Assembly (NCBI RefSeq): GCF_044324785.1
Contig: NZ_CP172127.1
DNA from: Escherichia coli
Lineage (GTDB): Bacteria > Pseudomonadota > Gammaproteobacteria > Enterobacterales > Enterobacteriaceae
Direction: 5' to 3' (one strand)
DNA: 64,000 nucleotides
Shown: positions 1 through 10,923 of the stretch, one piece after another
How positions within the stretch are numbered: the first letter of the stretch is position 1
Layout: every line of letters starts with the position of its first letter
The notes under the pieces: generated by a model
The model's input: the letters and a program-made list of their open reading frames with translations, nothing else
The model's database searches: none
Told to the model about the DNA's origin: nothing
Made by a program: the position numbers and the translations under genes

Positions 1-127
1 GGGAAAAGTTACGCGCGATGGTGTCGAGCAATGGCTGGGCGTAATAGTTGCTGGCGACCGCCAGACCGGTGGCGATAGACATCAGCACGATCAGTGCCGG
101 GCTAAGCTCATGGTTTGTTTTAGTCAT
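1..127 (-). CDS. ygaY: N-terminal fragment of an MFS-type transporter (ygaY-like); gene runs off the window edge
   Basis: Reverse-complement of 1..127 translates from ATG (125-127) as MTKTNHELSPALIVLMSIATGLAVASNYYAQPLLDTIARNF, a hydrophobic transporter-like N-terminus; position upstream of proX matches K-12 synteny. Confidence 0.55.
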   Translation of the reverse strand, partial: MTKTNHELSPALIVLMSIATGLAVASNYYAQPLLDTIARNFS

Positions 128-228
128 TATTTTTGTTCATCAGGTGATGATTAAGCTGGAAATCAATAATAGCGGATGTTGATGAATATGGGATGAAAGA
201 TAGATTGTTGAAATGTGCGGTGTGGTTT

Positions 229-309
229 GTAGGCGTGATAAGACGCGTCAGCGTCGCATCAGGCATTGTGTACAGAGCGGCGGATGAGGCGAAAACGCCT
301 TATCCGCCC
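229..309. repeat. Pair of REP (repetitive extragenic palindromic) units downstream of proX
   Basis: gtaggcgtgataagacgcgtcagcgtcgcatcaggc and cggcggatgaggcgaaaacgccttatccgcc both match the REP/PU family pattern. Confidence 0.7.
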
Positions 310-318
310 GAATAAAAA

Positions 319-1311
319 TTACTTCTGCGCTGCCAGCGCCTCATTCACCCAGCCATCGAACTGCTGCTGGTGGGCTTTGATCCAGCCATCAACGTGGCCC
401 TGAATATCGCCTTCTGAGGCTTTGCCGTCATGCATAATGGCGTTCTGGGCGTTAATATCTGCCACTGGCAACTGCATAATGGCAAACAGTTTCGCTGCCG
501 CCGGGTTTTTCTCGGCCCAGGCTTTGTTGGCAACGATATGCATGGTGCTGACCGGGAAGCCATAATTCGCACCATTCGGCAGTTTGGTATCGGCGTTTTT
601 ATCGCCTGGCAGTGCGGAGAACGGCACCTGCAACCAGACGACATCTTTGCCCGGCTTCAGTTCGTTACTCACCCAGTACGGCGTCCAGGTGTAGTAAAAC
701 ACCGGTTTGCCCTCTTTATAGCGACTGATGGTGTCGGCCATCATCGCTGCGTAGTTCCCCTGATTATGCGTCACGGTATTGGTCAGTTCATACGCGGCAA
801 GCTGGTGGTTGATGGCACCTTCGCAGCCCCAGCCTGGGTTACAGCCAGTTAAATCCGCTTTACCGTCGCCGTTGGTATCGAACAGTTTGGCGATCTTCGG
901 ATCTTTCAGTTGCGCGATGTTGGTGATTTTGTACTGGTCGGCGGTTTTCTTATCGATCAGGTAACCCTGTGCCGCGCCGTTAACGAATACCCCTTCACGA
1001 TAAAATTTCTTATCGCCACCGGCAGCTTCGTACATGTTGTCATGCAGCGGCGTCCAGTTCACGGCGGTGAAGGTTGCATCGCCGGAAGCAAGTGAGGTGT
1101 AGCCAACGTTGTAATCCACTTCGCTGGGTTTATTGACGGTATAACCTAATTTCTCCAGTGCACGACTGACCAGCAGCGTCTGGAAGGTTTCTTCAGTGAT
1201 GGTACTCTGAACTGGATTAACAGTAATGCCTTTGCCCGGCAGATCGGCTGCAAAAGTTTGTGTAGAGATAAGCGTGGCAAACGCTGTCGCAAAAAGTACG
1301 CTATGTCGCAT
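319..1311 (-). CDS. proX: Glycine betaine/proline ABC transporter, periplasmic binding protein ProX
   Basis: ORF 319..1353; start moved to the Met of [21 protein letters not shown] (signal peptide), giving 330 aa; last gene of proVWX. Confidence 0.93.
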
Positions 1312-1368
1312 TGTTATTCCTTTTTTTGGCAGGGTGATAATGCCCGGCGTCACCGGGCAAGTGCAGAG

Positions 1369-2433
1369 TTACTTAATGAATGGGCGGGTCAGCAGACCGA
1401 CAGGGCCAGTGGTGTACCAGCGACGGTTGCCGCGACTGCGTGAGTCGCGTCCAACGGCCTGCGTCAGGCGGTCGAGGATAATGGCGAGGATCACAATCCC
1501 GACGCCGCCAACGGTGGCAAGGCCCATATCCAGACGACCGATACCGCGAAGTACCATCTGACCCAGCCCGCCGACGGCAATCATCGAGGCGATGACCACC
1601 ATAGAAAGAGCCAGCATCAGCGTCTGGTTAACGCCCGCCATAATGGTCGGCATCGCCAGCGGTAACTGAACTTTGAACAGCATCTGGCGCGGGCTGGCAC
1701 CGAATGAGCGCGAGGCTTCAATCAGATCCGCCGGAACCTGGTTAATCCCCAGAATAGTCAGACGGATAATCGGCGGCAGAGCAAAGATGATCGTCACCAC
1801 CACGCCCGGCACGTTACCGATACCAAACAGCATGACGATTGGTACCAGATAAACAAACGCTGGCGTGGTCTGCATGGCATCAAGCAGTGGACGAATAATT
1901 TTCGCCGCTCGTGGACTTCTCGCCAGCCAGATCCCCAACGGCAAACCGATGACGATACAGAACAGCAGGGCGGTTAACACCAGCGCCAGAGTAACCATTG
2001 CCTGTGACCAGGCACCGATTGCGCCGATGGCAATCAGTGAAATCAGCGTCGCGACGCCCATTCCGACACCGGAAATTTGCCAGGCGATGAGAGCGAAAAC
2101 GATAATCGCCACCGGCGCAGGCATACCCAGCAGCAATTGCTGGAAACCGTTAAGGATGTAATCGACCGGAACGCGCACGCCCTGGAAGACCGGGCGAAAA
2201 TGAGTCACGACCCAGTCGATCCCTTCAGTGACCCAACTGTCGAGCGGGATCAGCGTCTTATGGAACGGATCGAGAATATTAAAATGCTCGACGTTTGGCG
2301 CAGGCGTACTGGTCAGCCAGTCAGCGCCACCGCCGTCAGTCGGTGCAGTCGCCGGTGTACCCCAGGCGTCTGCGGATTGTGCGGCACTGTCCGCCGCTGG
2401 CGTGGTATCCCACGGATTATTTTGATCAGCCAT
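1369..2433 (-). CDS. proW: Glycine betaine/proline ABC transporter permease ProW
   Basis: 354-aa polytopic membrane protein; 8-nt overlap with proV typical of the proU operon. Confidence 0.93.
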
Positions 2434-3628
2434 TATTTACCCCCTCACGATCTAAAGCGCGCAGCAGCATTCCTTTCGAAATGATGCCGACATACTGTTG
2501 GTCCTCGTCGACCACGGGCACCGCACAGGGGGCCTGTCCGACATGAGAGAGCAACTCGCTAAGAGGCGTTTGCGCATCGACCGCTAATGGCGCATCAATC
2601 AGCGCCGCATCAAGACCTTGCTGCTGCGTTAACGCGGTTTTAAGCGAATCGATGGAGACTGCGCCGACAAACTTATTACCGCGTTCGATAACGTAGCCAT
2701 ATTCGCGATCTTCATCCTGCAATAATTTCAGTGCCGAACGTGGGCCGAAGCCAGGGGTTTTACGAATTAAGCCATTCGGTGTCCGGCGGGCAATATCTTT
2801 CGCACTGAATACCTGACTAATATCGACGCCGCGGAAGAAGGTACGGACATAATCATTCGCCGGATTATTGAGAATTTCATCCGGTGTGCCGACTTGTACC
2901 ACTTCACCATTTTGCATAATGGCAATTCGGTCGCCAATACGCATGGCTTCATCGAGATCGTGGGAAATAAAGACAATGGTGCGCTGATGTTTCGCCTGTA
3001 ATTTTACCAGCTCATCCTGCATCTCGGTGCGAATTAATGGATCGAGTGCCGAGAAGGCTTCGTCCATTAATAATATATCCGGATTAATCGCTAACGCGCG
3101 GGCTAATCCCACACGTTGACGCATCCCGCCAGAGAGTTCATCCGGGTAGCTGTGGGCATAATTTTCCAGCCCGACCTGACGCAGTGCATCAAGGGCTTTT
3201 TCACGGCGTTCTTCGGCATTAATTCCGGCCAGTTCCATACCGAACGCAGTATTGTCCAGCACGGTCATATGCGGCATTAAGGCAAAGGACTGGAAGACCA
3301 TCGCAATCTTTTTTCTGCGCACCTCACGGAGTTCGGCGTCGGATATTTTGGCAATATCCACACCATCAATCAGCACTTGCCCGCGGGTGGGTTCAATCAG
3401 GCGATTGAGAAGGCGTACCATTGTGGATTTACCCGAACCGGATAATCCCATGATGACAAATATCTCGCCTTCTTCAATGGCCAGACTGGCGTCTTTTACG
3501 CCAAGCGATAGCCCAGTTTTTTCCAGAATTTGTTCTTTTGAAAGTCCTTGTTCGATATATTTGAAAGCTCGCTGTGGATGCTCACCAAATATTTTATAAA
3601 GATTTTTAATTTCTAATTTAATTGCCAT
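2426..3628 (-). CDS. proV: Glycine betaine/proline ABC transporter ATPase ProV
   Basis: 400 aa with Walker [13 protein letters not shown] signature LSGGMRQR and C-terminal CBS-type region. Confidence 0.95.
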
Positions 3629-3983
3629 GCAATAGAAAGATTCCTGTTATTTGTTTATGTCGATACATTACCCAATGGAAATAGTCACTTTTTTCTACCC
3701 TAACATACTGAGAATCTGAGGCAACCCCTGATGGCAAATGTGGCATGAATATTGATGTGAGCAAATCGCCGGAATTTCCCATGATATAAGGGCTGAGAGC
3801 AAATCGAGAAAAGTTGATATTTTTTGTCAAAGATAGCGAAAAAACGCCTGAATATTGTGGTTTCAGGCGAATAATGCAACAGAGTGTCAGTGTAGATCAC
3901 CACAAAATATTTGCGTGATAAAAAGCTATTTGGCGGGAATTATTTCCCTGCTGCGGGTAGTGATATTTTTGAAAATAACCCCC

Positions 3984-4952
<969 letters not shown>

Positions 4953-7097
4953 TTAAAGTGCACAGGAGACGCAGCCTTCAATTTCAGTGCCTTCCAGCGC
5001 CATCTGACGCAGGCGGATGTAGTAGAGCGTTTTGATACCCTTGCGCCAGGCGTAAATCTGCGCTTTGTTGATATCGCGAGTGGTGGCGGTATCGGGGAAA
5101 AACAGCGTCAGCGACAGCCCCTGATCGACATGGCGAGTCGCTTCCGCGTAGGTGTCGATGATCTTTTCTGCGCCAATTTCGTAAGCGTCCTGATACAGCG
5201 CCAGATTTTCGTTAGTCATAAATGGGGCAGGGTAGTAAACGCGTCCTGTTTTGCCCTCTTTGCGTATCTCTACTTTCGCCACAATCGGATGAATACTCGA
5301 CGTGGCATGGTTGATATAAGAGATAGAACCGGTTGGCGGCACCGCCTGAAGATTCTGGTTGTAAATGCCGTAGCGCATCACGTCGTCGCGCAGCTGCGCC
5401 CACATCTCACGGGTAGGTAACGTAATACCGCTGCGGGCAAACAGTTCGCCAACTTTCGCCGTTTTCGGCTGCCAGTTCCCTTGCAGATATTGGCTAAAAT
5501 ATTCACCACTGGCATAGCGTGACTGTTTGAACCCGGCGAAGGTTTCACCGCGTTCGCGCGCCAGCAACATCGAGGTACGCAGTGCGTGCCAGGTGATGGT
5601 ATAGAAATAGAGATTGGTGAAATCCAGAGCTTCCGGCGAACCATAGGCGATGCCTTCTCGCGCCAGGTAACCGTGTAAATTCATCTGCCCCAGACCGATG
5701 GCATGCGAGGCGGCATTTCCGGCTTCGATGGACGGCACGCTGCGGATATGGCTCATATCTGACACCGCTGTTAAACCGCGTACGGCAGTCTCTACCGTGC
5801 GGGCAAAGTCGGGGGAATCCATGGTGTGGGCAATATTCAACGAACCTAAATTGCAGGAAATATCATGGCCTGTGCGGGCATAGTCGAGATTCTCGTCATA
5901 CTCTGAGGCGCTGTTAACCTGCAAAATTTCTGAGCAGAGATTGCTCATATTTATGCGCCCGGCGATAGGGTTAGCACGGTTTACCGTGTCTTCATACATG
6001 ATGTAGGGATAGCCGGACTCAAACTGGATTTCTGCCAGTCGCTGGAAGAAATCACGGGCGTTGAGGTATTTTTTGCGGATGCGTTCATCGGCAACCAGTT
6101 CGTCATAGTGTTCGCTGATGGCGATATCAGCAAACGGCTTGCCATAAACCCGCTCAACGTCATAAGGCGAAAACAGTGCCATCTGCGCATTCTCTTTTGC
6201 CAGATGGAAAGTGATATCCGGGATCACCACGCCCAGCGACAGTGTTTTAATGCGGATTTTCTCGTCGGCATTTTCCCGTTTCGTATCGAGAAAACGCAGA
6301 ATATCGGGATGATGGGCATGTAAATAGACTGCGCCAGCCCCCTGACGAGCGCCGAGTTGGTTGGCATAGGAAAATGCGTCTTCCAGCATTTTCATCACCG
6401 GAATTACGCCAGAAGATTGATTTTCAATACGTTTAATTGGCGCGCCCGCTTCCCGCAGATTCGACAGCAAAAATGCTACGCCGCCGCCGCGTTTCGACAG
6501 TTGCAGTGCGGAATTTACCGCCCGACCAATCGACTCCATATTGTCTTCAATACGCAGCAAAAAACAGGAAACCAGTTCGCCGCGCTGCTGCTTACCGCAG
6601 TTGAGGAATGTTGGCGTGGCTGGCTGAAAGCGTCCTGACAGCATCTCATCAGTGAGCTGCGCCGCCAGTGTTTCATCGCCTTGTGCCAGCGTCAGCGCCA
6701 CCATCGTGACGCGATCGGCAAAATCTTCCAGATAAAGCTTACCGTCGAATGTCTTCAACGTATAGCTGGTGTAAAACTTCCATGCTCCGAGGAATGTCTG
6801 GAAACGAAACCCGCTGGCGTGCGCGTGGGCAAACAGCGTAATGACAAAATCGCGAGAGTAGCGATTAAGGACACTTTCATCATAGTAACCTTCGTTAACC
6901 AGCCAGTTCAGGCGCTGCTGCTGGCTACTGAAGGCCACACTGTTCGGACGCACATGCGTCGCAATAAAGGCGTCAACGGCCTGGCGGTCTTTATCGAACT
7001 GAATGCGACCTGCGCTATCGTAAAGGTTAAGCATCGCATTCAGAGCGTGATAATCCATCGTTTCCTGCGTCAGGCGTTCTACGGTTGTCGTTGCCAA
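4953..7097 (-). CDS. nrdE: Class Ib ribonucleotide reductase alpha subunit NrdE
   Basis: 714-aa RNR large subunit ending in the C-terminal cysteine pair (…GCVSCAL). Confidence 0.95.
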
Positions 7098-7480
7098 AAT
7101 TCGGTTACTCCTTTACGAACGTTTTCGATATCGCTTTGCGTACCCATGAGTTCAAAGCGGTACAGCCACGGCACGCCGCATTTCCGGGCTATCACATCTC
7201 CGGCGCGGCCATACGCCTCACCAAAGTTGCGATTACCCGAAGCAATAACGCCGCGCAGCAACACCCGGTTGTGCTCGTCGTTTAAAAAGCGAATGACCTG
7301 TCGTGGCACTGCGCCAGCCGTACCGCCGCCGCCGTAAGAGGGCACGATCAGGATGTAAGGTTCGTCTACCTGAATCCGTTCCCGCTCATTGAGCGGGATG
7401 CGCACCGCGGGCAGTCCTAAACGTTCGATAAAACGCTGCGTATTTTCGGAGCTACTGGAGAAGTAGACGAGCTGGCTCAT
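7079..7480 (-). CDS. nrdI: Flavodoxin-like NrdI
   Basis: 133-aa ORF between nrdH and nrdE, overlapping both; exact start uncertain (the real start may be a non-ATG codon upstream). Confidence 0.85.
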
Positions 7481-7722
7481 GCACTGGCCGCGTGTGGTGC
7501 TGGATGCAGACGGTTGATCATGTCCGGGCGGAAACCAGACCAGCTAAGATCGCCAGCAATCACTACCGGCAACTGACGAAAGCCCTGAGCACGCAGCACT
7601 TCCGCCGCTTCAGGAACGCGATCGACATTAATCATTTCAAAGTCAAAGCCCCGGGTTTCCATCGCCCGTTTGGTGGCGTGGCACTGAACGCAATCGTTAC
7701 GAGTGTAAATAGTAATGCGCAT
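7477..7722 (-). CDS. nrdH: Glutaredoxin-like protein NrdH
   Basis: 81 aa with redox motif CVQC; first gene of nrdHIEF. Confidence 0.93.
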
Positions 7723-7908
7723 GATTCGTATTTCCGTTTAAAATGAAGATACGGCGCGATGATACGCGTCGGGTTGTCTCTCTGTTGATACAGAGATACT
7801 AGATGTAGTTGAAAAAAGATTCAACCACACAATATATAGCAAATAGTGGTCGAAATTACCCTGGGTATGAGCGTGACGGGGTAGGGGGATTTTTGTGATT
7901 CACCAGGC

Positions 7909-7940
7909 AAAAAGAAACCCCGAAGCCAGGCTTCGGGGTT
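7909..7940 (-). terminator. Rho-independent terminator downstream of ygaM
   Basis: Hairpin aaccccgaagcc/ggcttcggggtt followed by a T-run on the minus strand. Confidence 0.6.
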
Positions 7941-7968
7941 AAAGACGCGTATTTATTATCATGTTGCA

Positions 7969-8298
7969 CTACGATTTGCGCATGCTTAACAGTGCGCCGA
8001 TAAAAATACCTACCGCAGCTGCTGTACCCACGCTACACCAGGGTCTTTCACGAACAAAAGAATCCGCGCAGCCAACGGCATCACGCGCGGCTTGCTGGAC
8101 GCGAGTACGACCATGCATTCGCGCCCTGGTTTCTTTCAGTAGAGCCTGCGCTTTACTGCGTGCGGCTTCAGCTTCCCCTTTAGCGTCGCTGCCCCAGGAC
8201 TTCAACACAGATTCGAGGCTGTCAGCTAATTGATTGACATCATTCTGGATATCCTGCACGCCATCATCGACGTCGTTGCGGTTCGGTCGGTTAAACAT
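7969..8298 (-). CDS. ygaM: ElaB/YqjD-family membrane-anchored ribosome-associated protein YgaM
   Basis: ORF 7969..8310; the second Met (MFNRPNRNDV…) gives about 109 aa; C-terminal transmembrane anchor. Confidence 0.8.
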   Translation of the reverse strand: MFNRPNRNDVDDGVQDIQNDVNQLADSLESVLKSWGSDAKGEAEAARSKAQALLKETRARMHGRTRVQQAARDAVGCADSFVRERPWCSVGTAAAVGIFIGALLSMRKS

Positions 8299-8449: not shown

Positions 8450-8794
8450 ATGTATTTACGACCAGACGAGGTGGCGCGCGTACTTGAAAAAGTCGGTTTT
8501 ACTGTCGATGTGGTAACTCAGAAAGCGTATGGTTACCGCCGTGGGGAAAATTATGTCTATGTTAATCGCGAAGCGCGAATGGGACGTACCGCCCTGGTAA
8601 TTCATCCAACATTAAAAGAACGCAGTTCAACACTGGCTGAACCCGCTTCCGATATTAAAACTTGCGATCATTACCAGCAATTTCCGCTCTATTTAGCGGG
8701 TGAACGTCATGAGCATTACGGTATCCCGCATGGCTTTAGTTCGCGTGTTGCGCTTGAACGTTATTTGAATGGTTTATTTGGCGAAGCCAGTTAA
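8450..8794 (+). CDS. ygaC: Uncharacterized protein YgaC
   Basis: 114-aa ORF in the K-12-syntenic position between ygaM and alaE. Confidence 0.8.
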
Positions 8795-8830
8795 AGACGC
8801 GACTGGCGATGCCAGTCGCGAAAAGAAGGG

Positions 8831-9280
8831 TCAGGCTTTTACCTGCTGGTAACGGCTGACTTTAAACAGTCGGCGGCAATAATCGAGGAAGTAGCCATAA
8901 ACCGCCCCCATCAACATCGAAACAACGATGTTTGAACTGACCGCCGCCATAATCTGATGCCAGTCTGCGCCCACCACTAACAAGATCGCCACATACACCG
9001 GTGACTGGAACGTCACATAAGCCATGATATCCGCCAGATTTTTTATCCAGCCCGACGGGCTAACTTTGCGTGCTGCGCGCATAAACAGATCGCGGTACAT
9101 ACCGTATGGCCATGCAATTAAGATGTTCACCGGAATCGCTACCAATCTGGAATAAAGAGACTGTTCGAAGCTCATTCCGGAGAGGAAAACTTCAATACAC
9201 ATGTTCACGACAGAACAGTAAACAACCATCGCGAACGTATCTGCAACTGCATGACGCAAGCGTGACTGCGGTGAGAACAT
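8831..9280 (-). CDS. alaE: L-alanine exporter AlaE (YgaW)
   Basis: 149-aa small membrane protein next to stpA. Confidence 0.85.
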
Positions 9281-9947
9281 GCTAATGCTCCTTAATAAAA
9301 GCGTAATGGGACGTTAATGGAGATGAAAGCAGTGGATCTCATTGCCATCTGCATTTTCGCATAGCGTATATCGCTGGCTATGACTAATCAATTAGTGAAA
9401 AATTTTTATTTAAACTGTTTTTGTAGATAAAATATTCCGTAACGGCGCGTTTTTTGTACATTGTGGATTTTTACATGCCGATATGGTTTATTTTCAATTT
9501 AATCAATTAGATATGATCCTGCCTTTAATTACACTAATGAAAGTTTGGGGGTGAGATAACGCTATAAGCGTAGAGAATTCGGTGTATGTCGTGACCGGGT
9601 CATTTTCAGCATTTTTTATGCCAGAAAATGTACATTGACAGCAGAAAGCACCAGTGAGGGGTGTTTCCATTTATTCAGTTAAATTGCATTTTTATTCATT
9701 TTTGTTTTGTCAGGCTTGCGGAATTAGCGAGCAGAGAGCGCCGCTCTGCTCACAAATAACCTAAATTACTCATCAAAATGGCTAATATATAATCTTGAAA
9801 TTATTCTGAGAGTTTCAGAAAATAACAGCTGAAATAATCTCGCGCAGGACTGTAAATAGATTAAATTTTGTGGAAATATAATAAGTGATCGCTTACACTA
9901 CGCGACGAAATACTTTTTTGTTTTGGCGTTAAAAGGTTTTCTTTATT

Positions 9948-10352
9948 ATGTCCGTAATGTTACAAAGTTTAAATAACATTCGCACTCTCCGTGCGATGGC
10001 TCGCGAATTCTCCATTGACGTTCTTGAAGAAATGCTCGAAAAATTCAGGGTTGTCACTAAAGAAAGACGTGAAGAAGAAGAACAGCAGCAGCGTGAACTG
10101 GCAGAGCGCCAGGAAAAAATTAGTACCTGGCTGGAGCTGATGAAAGCTGACGGAATTAACCCGGAAGAGTTATTGGGTAATAGCTCTGCTGCTGCACCAC
10201 GCGCTGGTAAAAAACGCCAGCCGCGTCCGGCAAAATATAAATTCACCGATGTTAACGGTGAAACTAAAACCTGGACCGGTCAGGGTCGTACACCGAAGCC
10301 AATCGCTCAGGCGCTGGCAGAAGGTAAATCTCTCGACGATTTCCTGATCTAA
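9948..10352 (+). CDS. stpA: H-NS paralog StpA, nucleoid-associated DNA-binding protein and RNA chaperone
   Basis: 134 aa, [33 protein letters not shown]… with the H-NS-type C-terminal DNA-binding motif TWTGQGRTP. Confidence 0.95.
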
Positions 10353-10398
10353 TTACTGAGGCCGGATGCCGCCGCTATGGCGCGTCCGGCGTCGCTTC

Positions 10399-10923
10399 TC
10401 AAGCTCGTTGGTTCCACGGCATCTTACCTAACAACCTTGCCATCCCACAAAAACCGCTAATTCCTGCAAACAGTAACCCGGCACCAACAAAGCCGCTTAA
10501 TAAGAAGAAACCGCTATTTACGGTATAACCTAGTATAACTCCGATTAATATTAAACCACCCGCAGCGATCTGCACCTGGCGCATTAACGGCAAGGGTTGA
10601 GATTTATTTACCGCTACTGGTAATCCTGCTTTTTTCCAGCCATCAATCCCATCTTCGAGTAAAAAGATTTCTGCGGGGGCGGCAATCGCTGCTAATTTAT
10701 CGGCGTTATTACTGGTGCGTTTACCTGCCTGGCAGTGGAATATAATTTGCTCGTGACGTAATTTAGCCGGAAGACCTGACTGTTCCAGCACGGATAATGG
10801 AGCCAGATCTGCTTCAGGAATATGCTCACGAAGATATTCATCAGCGTCACGAATATCGATTAACTTTGCGCCGCGTGCGATTAATTCTTGTGCATCATGC
10901 GGCGAAATGGTTGTCAAAGCCAT
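10399..10923 (-). CDS. ygaP: Rhodanese-domain inner membrane protein YgaP
   Basis: 174 aa; N-terminal rhodanese fold with active-site Cys (…FHCQAGKRT…) and C-terminal transmembrane helices. Confidence 0.85.

Follow-up and report, generated by a model that had tools for sequence, protein, structure and literature searches.

The 667-bp stretch that separates the divergently transcribed genes alaE and stpA in Escherichia coli contig NZ_CP172127.1 (RefSeq assembly GCF_044324785.1) is very probably the known regulatory spacer shared by the two genes. Within this spacer the sequence-specific information resides at the two ends, enclosing a centre without conserved sequence. The interpretation of the region as being under Lrp and H-NS control is already known for K-12, and nothing that we describe here is new in kind. 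In the following, the window denotes the whole stretch of DNA that was analyzed, 64,000 nucleotides in length, and all positions refer to it.

Arrangement and composition of the spacer

The left flank of the spacer is formed by alaE (8831–9280, minus strand), which encodes the L-alanine exporter of 149 aa, and the right flank by stpA (9948–10352, plus strand), which encodes the H-NS paralogue of 134 aa; both coding sequences are supported by the list of open reading frames and by RefSeq annotation. The spacer therefore spans exactly positions 9281–9947, that is 667 bp, with a GC content of 0.349 and without any annotated feature. The coordinates and names of alaE and stpA agree with the RefSeq annotation of NZ_CP151004.1, the closest complete genome, which is 99.4% identical over the query. 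The position-for-position match between NZ_CP151004.1 and the window is limited to approximately 8–14 kb, with identity at chance level elsewhere at a fixed offset (1–8000 and 14000–64000), and the annotation coordinates of NZ_CP151004.1 are therefore valid for the window only near the spacer.

In the equivalent 64 kb of NZ_CP151004.1, the spacer ranks second in length among 65 inter-feature gaps, which have a median of 85 bp; the sole longer gap is the junction of the tRNA-Ile island (751 bp). The initial annotation had pointed to a long divergent gap between alaE and stpA, and a length of exactly 667 bp, second of the 65 gaps, bears this out. The same annotation described the region as AT-rich, which holds relative to the window: the GC content is 0.349 in the spacer versus 0.494 in the window, and equally low or lower values occur in 3% of 667-bp segments. 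Within the set of 30 intergenic gaps that measure 100 bp or more (median 0.39), however, the spacer has only the sixth lowest GC content, so that it is AT-rich compared with the genome and ordinary for intergenic DNA. Thus, it is the length that is the unusual property of the spacer, whereas its AT-richness is normal for intergenic DNA.

The other 667-bp segments of the window with a GC content of 0.349 or less are all located at approximately 21500–24600, with a minimum of 0.285 near 21841. The counterpart of this stretch in NZ_CP151004.1 contains tRNA-Ile and adjacent hypothetical, adhesin and IS genes, and because of this gene content we regard it as probably a horizontally acquired island.

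Relation to the K-12 control region

Alignment of the spacer with that of the stpA-alaE (ygaW) region of E. coli K-12 (b2669/b2670) gave 94.9% identity over near-equal lengths (667 bp versus 668 bp). The two regions share the flanking genes and their divergent orientation, they are syntenic, and the spacers can be aligned, which identifies them as orthologous. Of 5426 complete E. coli genomes, 5416 contain the spacer, once per genome and on the chromosome, and neither the RefSeq record of MG1655 nor the other RefSeq records listed annotate a feature within it. Differences from the K-12 allele cluster at approximately 9400–9760, whereas both gene-proximal ends are nearly unchanged. For the central 280 bp, the allele found in the window is rare, and K-12-type strains are about 90% identical to it; this divergence implies no difference in function. 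An allele of the centre at least 99% identical to that of the window was found in 8 of 5419 complete E. coli genomes, while 4337 genomes carry one that is 90–95% identical and 885 one that is 80–90% identical.

The evidence for Lrp and H-NS binding and for its effects comes from published work on K-12, in which the central spacer differs by approximately 10% from the allele in the window. Ziegler et al. (PMC10127797) used “the stpA-alaE region” to exemplify a double Lrp ChIP peak, and reported that (i) alaE and stpA are both regulated in an Lrp-dependent manner, (ii) the activity of a PalaE-lacZ fusion depends on Lrp and leucine, (iii) the second Lrp peak is situated inside ygaP, more than 1 kb away, and its deletion reduces the Lrp activation of stpA more than fivefold, and (iv) Lrp bridges stpA-alaE DNA in a leucine-sensitive fashion as observed by AFM. 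Shimada et al. (PMC3946193) found the spacer between stpA and alaE to be marked by H-NS and to contain one RNA polymerase-bound promoter per direction, for which they selected back-to-back hexamers for both genes in the centre, near 9471–9536. Expression of stpA has been summarized as Lrp-dependent, silenced by H-NS, and responsive to osmotic and temperature shifts (PMC4668568), and a ChIP peak of RNA polymerase-sigma S has been assigned to alaE (PMC4447067). The proposal that alaE and stpA share a divergent control region with sites for nucleoid proteins (H-NS/Lrp) is accordingly correct, and had already been published for K-12 (PMC10127797, PMC3946193, PMC4668568).

Two classes of known promoters provide a frame of reference. 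With the Lrp-bridged double-site promoters, such as dadAX and oppA (PMC10127797), the region shares an Lrp peak in the promoter spacer, a second one about 1 kb away in ygaP, and leucine-sensitive bridging; no difference from this class exists, since stpA-alaE is one of the examples on which that study itself relies. With the H-NS-silenced promoters in AT-rich curved DNA, such as proV and hns, it shares AT-richness, a predicted curvature above that of shuffled sequences, and the reported silencing of stpA by H-NS. Unlike in these promoters, the high-affinity H-NS motif is not enriched in the spacer, whose AT content does not stand out among intergenic DNA.

Conservation across and within species

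We scanned one genome per species and obtained 80 loci with alaE. In 58 of these 80 species, stpA is located divergently upstream of alaE, across a spacer of 475–789 bp (median 557) with a GC content of 0.31–0.43 versus 0.47–0.56 for the surrounding 5 kb. An alignment of 28 representatives revealed that conservation is confined to the two ends of the spacer: 9361–9510 on the alaE side, and 9870–9947 on the stpA side. The diversity among eight E. coli strains follows the same division, with pi values of 0.018 for the alaE-proximal 200 bp, 0.074 for 9481–9760, and 0.010 for the stpA-proximal 187 bp. At third codon positions in six neighbouring genes pi ranges from 0.009 to 0.085, and the centre therefore drifts at an approximately neutral rate.

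The stpA-ygaP-ygaV block is absent from 19 of the 80 species, all of them Enterobacteriaceae (Kosakonia, Silvania, Superficieibacter and others; loci L042, L044, L045, L047, L048, L051–L054, L058, L059, L061–L063, L065, L066, L071, L074 and L082 of the scan), where alaE faces yqaE across 600–960 bp. This distribution suggests that the stpA block was either gained by insertion or lost as one unit.

The alaE side

The Shine-Dalgarno sequence of alaE, AAGGAG (9288–9293, minus strand), precedes the ATG by 7 nt and has a GGA core that is invariant in 24 species. Further upstream, position and conservation point to two promoter hexamers on the minus strand: a putative –10 element TACGCT (9363–9368), whose T, A, C and T (TAnnCT) do not vary among 24 species, and a putative –35 element TTGATT (9386–9391), of which TTGA(T/C) is retained in all 28 aligned species. 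At a spacing of 17 bp, these elements would constitute a weak sigma-70-type core promoter, TTGATT-17-TACGCT, with transcription predicted to start near 9356 and to generate a leader of approximately 76 nt.

The most conserved block of the whole spacer, GAAAAATTTTTATTTA ... TTTTTGTAGATAAAATATTCCG (9397–9439), is located directly upstream of this candidate promoter, at approximately –41 to –83 relative to the predicted alaE start. It is an invariant A/T block, GAAAAATTTTTATTTA...TTTTTGTAGATAAAAT, with phased A/T tracts, and its identity to genera other than Escherichia is 0.74–0.96 per 10 bp, with 96% at 9401–9410. Phased A/T tracts and a peak of predicted curvature, which falls on the conserved block, are located at 9398–9495. 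Species without stpA can still carry a portion of the A/T block upstream of alaE, which argues that the block belongs to the control of alaE; partial retention was seen in 5 of the 19 stpA-less species. The block at 9397–9439, extending to approximately 9510, is a probable Lrp-binding array and/or a site of UP-like contacts with alpha-CTD. In a published DNase footprint Lrp reportedly lies at approximately –161 to –83 relative to the start codon of alaE, which would match the position of this block. We infer the assignment of Lrp to 9397–9439 from the K-12 ChIP data (PMC10127797).

An exact 11-nt direct repeat, TAATCAATTAG, occurs twice on this side with a spacing of 115 bp. The first copy (9385–9395) overlaps the putative alaE –35 element, and outside Escherichia only its ATCAA(T/C) is conserved. 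In the second copy (9500–9510) ATCAAT is conserved across genera; this copy falls inside the region from which Shimada et al. selected their back-to-back hexamers (PMC3946193).

Three further observations concern the surroundings of the alaE start. An upstream reading frame of 20 codons (9292–9354, minus strand) begins within a few nucleotides of the predicted alaE start of transcription; both E. coli and E. albertii have it in full, whereas three cryptic-clade species retain 5 codons of it and other genera lack it. In Citrobacter amalonaticus (L012), a GC-rich insertion of approximately 130 bp, which begins with TATACTCGTTATACTTCAGGTTG, separates the alaE Shine-Dalgarno sequence from the promoter and is aligned beside window position ~9296; presumably, this TATACTCGTTATACTTCAGGTTG insertion is similar to the terminal part of an ERIC/IRU intergenic repeat. 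Inside the alaE coding sequence, at codons ~5–10, CATGACGCAAGCGTGACT (9250–9267) corresponds, when reverse-complemented, to the PhoB site AGTCACGCTTGCGTCATG, which is listed as intragenic within alaE by a study whose title calls many such intragenic sites transcriptionally inert (PMC10294691).

The stpA side

The candidate core promoter of stpA (9870–9882, plus strand) comprises GTGGAAA followed by a perfect –10 element TATAAT (9877–9882), combined with a poor –35 element. It is conserved, with an identity of 0.78 in genera other than Escherichia. Transcription would start near 9889, giving a predicted 5′ leader of approximately 59 nt (9889–9947, plus strand) with the Shine-Dalgarno sequence AAGG at 9933–9936. 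In this leader AAAAGGTTTT is conserved (0.80), and the predicted fold is not unusually stable (z = –0.6). A perfect TATAAT together with a poor –35 element fits activator dependence of stpA.

With TTGATT-17-TACGCT conserved in its key bases upstream of alaE and TATAAT conserved upstream of stpA, the spacer would contain a divergent pair of sigma-70 promoters. A generic promoter scan called neither the putative alaE nor the putative stpA core promoter, because one hexamer of each is weak. Among published TSS data, those of Mendoza-Vargas 2009 and Yan 2018 have no entry for these genes.

Curvature and binding motifs

We predicted curvature with a wedge model based on dinucleotide parameters and implemented in our own script. 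In this model the spacer has a mean curvature of 8.4 degrees per turn versus 6.0 for the window, which places it in the top 0.4% of 667-bp segments. The predicted value is reached by 2% of dinucleotide shuffles, a modest excess, and the number of A/T tracts is 21 versus 15.1 ± 2.6 in shuffles. Curvature is predicted to peak at 9381–9460, 9601–9630, 9761–9780 and 9841–9870, and no 10.5-bp periodicity was found across the spacer as a whole. The description of the region as probably curved is favoured by a predicted curvature above 98% of shuffles and by the surplus of A/T tracts, but finds no counterpart in a region-wide 10.5-bp periodicity; overall, the wedge model lends it moderate support.

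Scans with mismatches allowed showed no enrichment in the spacer of the Lrp SELEX consensus YAGHAWATTWTDCTR (two matches with three mismatches) or of the high-affinity H-NS motif TCGATAAATT (one match with two mismatches). Both YAGHAWATTWTDCTR and TCGATAAATT are too information-poor to be useful in such scans. Since neither motif is enriched, Lrp and H-NS binding is not demonstrated by the sequence alone.

The centre of the spacer

The fast-evolving, AT-rich centre (9481–9760; pi 0.074) contains no conserved element. Approximately 9481–9850 can hardly be aligned, not even when E. coli is compared with E. albertii or with the cryptic clades, for which the identity over the whole spacer is about 68%, and the same part is rich in indels across genera. 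The repeats that we detected in the spacer amount to a weak 10-bp A/T array at 9670–9703 and short pairs at chance level. The centre is single-copy in every genome and is therefore not a mobile element. A GC-rich hairpin, GAGCAGAG-N7-CTCTGCTC (9729–9751), was considered as a terminator or conserved element and rejected: although stable on the minus strand (z = –2.2), it lacks a U-run on either strand, is restricted to E. coli and the closest clade, being absent or gapped in other genera, and was not called by the terminator scan.

Despite the lack of sequence conservation, the centre (approximately 280–350 bp) remains long and AT-rich in 58 species. The spacer measures at least 475 bp and has a GC content of 0.31–0.43 in all 58 of them, with a sequence that is unalignable between genera. 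Tentatively, and as a possibility that we consider somewhat unlikely, selection may maintain the length and AT-richness of the centre (~9481–9850), which would then serve H-NS/StpA filaments and Lrp bridging as a scaffold irrespective of its sequence and would insulate or couple the two promoters; the centre might also harbour cryptic promoters that fire only upon removal of H-NS or StpA. The centre would, we infer, serve at most as such a composition-dependent scaffold for nucleoid proteins.

Alternatively, the extra length could be functionless, the centre being evolutionary debris (a decayed gene or a scar from the insertion of stpA-ygaP-ygaV between yqaE and alaE) that is tolerated because it is harmless. 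Such an origin would account for the neutral-rate divergence and the many indels of the centre, the range of spacer lengths from 475 to 789 bp, the 19 species without stpA-ygaP-ygaV in which alaE faces yqaE, and a spacer GC content that is unexceptional for intergenic DNA. We nevertheless regard it as unlikely, as the shortest spacer in 58 species still measures 475 bp and the GC content remains at 0.31–0.43, Lrp/H-NS bridging and silencing are known to make use of extended AT-rich DNA (PMC10127797, PMC4668568), and searches with Pfam/NCBIfam revealed no vestige of a protein family. A functionless centre overlaps in part with the best explanation, a shared regulatory spacer, and differs from it solely on whether the length and AT-richness are selected.

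Search for hidden genes

That the spacer hides an unannotated sRNA gene or a translated small ORF is very improbable. Points that could be taken in favour of such a gene are the length of the gap (667 bp), the presence of mechanical ORFs of up to 55 aa and of a weak terminator-like site (9646–9666), and the promoter hexamers that Shimada et al. placed in the centre, near 9471–9536 (PMC3946193). Searches for RNA genes, however, were negative. Rfam, applied to 8700–10500 at E ≤ 10, returned only chance-level matches to a CRISPR repeat, a miRNA and Listeria rli43, far below their gathering scores, and returned nothing for 20 orthologous loci at the gathering score. The generic scan identified three sigma-70 consensus-like promoters in the spacer versus 3.6 expected, which is no enrichment, and the terminator scan yielded two unconvincing sites, one inside stpA and the weak one at 9646–9666. 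The curated Term-seq 3′ ends and the table of Rho termination from Adams et al. (PMC7815308), obtained for MG1655 grown in LB at two densities and in M63 glucose, have no entry within K-12 coordinates 2,798,400–2,799,299, a range that spans the whole spacer. Added to these results are the approximately neutral rate of the centre and the absence of an annotation at this place among the RefSeq records listed. The characteristics of a small RNA gene, i.e. an Rfam match, a convincing terminator, a conserved sequence in the centre and Term-seq 3′ ends, are thus all lacking.

The ORFs fare no better. None of the seven ORFs of 20–55 aa stays uninterrupted in both K-12 and the other Escherichia; for the 55-aa ORF, K-12 lacks the start and has an internal stop. 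Three shorter ORFs preceded by a Shine-Dalgarno sequence were likewise rejected, as they are broken in close relatives and have no significant family match, and among ORFs of at least 5 codons preceded by a Shine-Dalgarno sequence none is conserved within Escherichia. The ORFs of the spacer gave no significant match to Pfam/NCBIfam, the single Pfam match having an E value of 0.15 and a score of 12.7 bits against a cut-off of 27. Candidates for a small protein gene are, in short, broken within Escherichia and without a significant family match. The statement in the initial annotation that the region contains no ORF is accurate for conserved ORFs and needs amending for mechanical ones, of which there are several of 20–55 aa, and its suggestion that small unannotated transcripts or ORFs might be found here received no support from Rfam, ORF conservation, Term-seq and Rho data, the neutrally drifting centre, the alaE leader structure, and the promoter scan.

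It is, finally, extremely unlikely that the conserved 150 bp upstream of alaE act as a transcribed cis-regulatory leader (an alanine-sensing RNA or attenuator) instead of as protein-binding DNA: the better conservation of 9361–9510 than of the sequence beside the start codon, a 20-codon uORF (9354..9292, minus strand) that stops on the alaE Shine-Dalgarno sequence in E. coli and E. albertii, and the induction of alaE by alanine would all suit a leader of this kind, but RNAalifold detected no covarying structure in 24 species (–2.8 kcal/mol, five invariant pairs at the Shine-Dalgarno sequence and start codon, no compensatory changes), and the fold computed from one sequence alone is unremarkable (z = –1.35). 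Conservation falls on A/T runs and on TAnnCT and TTGA, paired at the spacing of a promoter. In three Escherichia clades the uORF comprises just 5 codons, in other genera it lacks an ATG, and published genetics credit the induction to Lrp (PMC10127797).

Discussion

For the shared regulatory spacer, the published K-12 work provides a mechanism of action. In K-12, Lrp occupies the spacer together with a second site approximately 1 kb away inside ygaP and, in minimal medium, bridges the two; this bridging activates stpA. Leucine or alanine alters Lrp binding, and alaE shifts from slight repression to activation. The silencing of stpA is brought about by H-NS, and also StpA, which coat the curved, AT-rich DNA.

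Our analysis adds a map of constraint to this framework: approximately 150 bp beside alaE and 80 bp beside stpA. It ties the A/T block to alaE, and identifies a central half that drifts neutrally yet stays long and AT-rich. The searches for hidden sRNAs, small ORFs and structures in the leader came out negative, and annotators can keep the spacer as non-coding regulatory DNA. The alaE-stpA spacer is a composite control region of a textbook style, whose regulators, Lrp and H-NS/StpA, have been published for K-12, and the present observations matter little beyond book-keeping.
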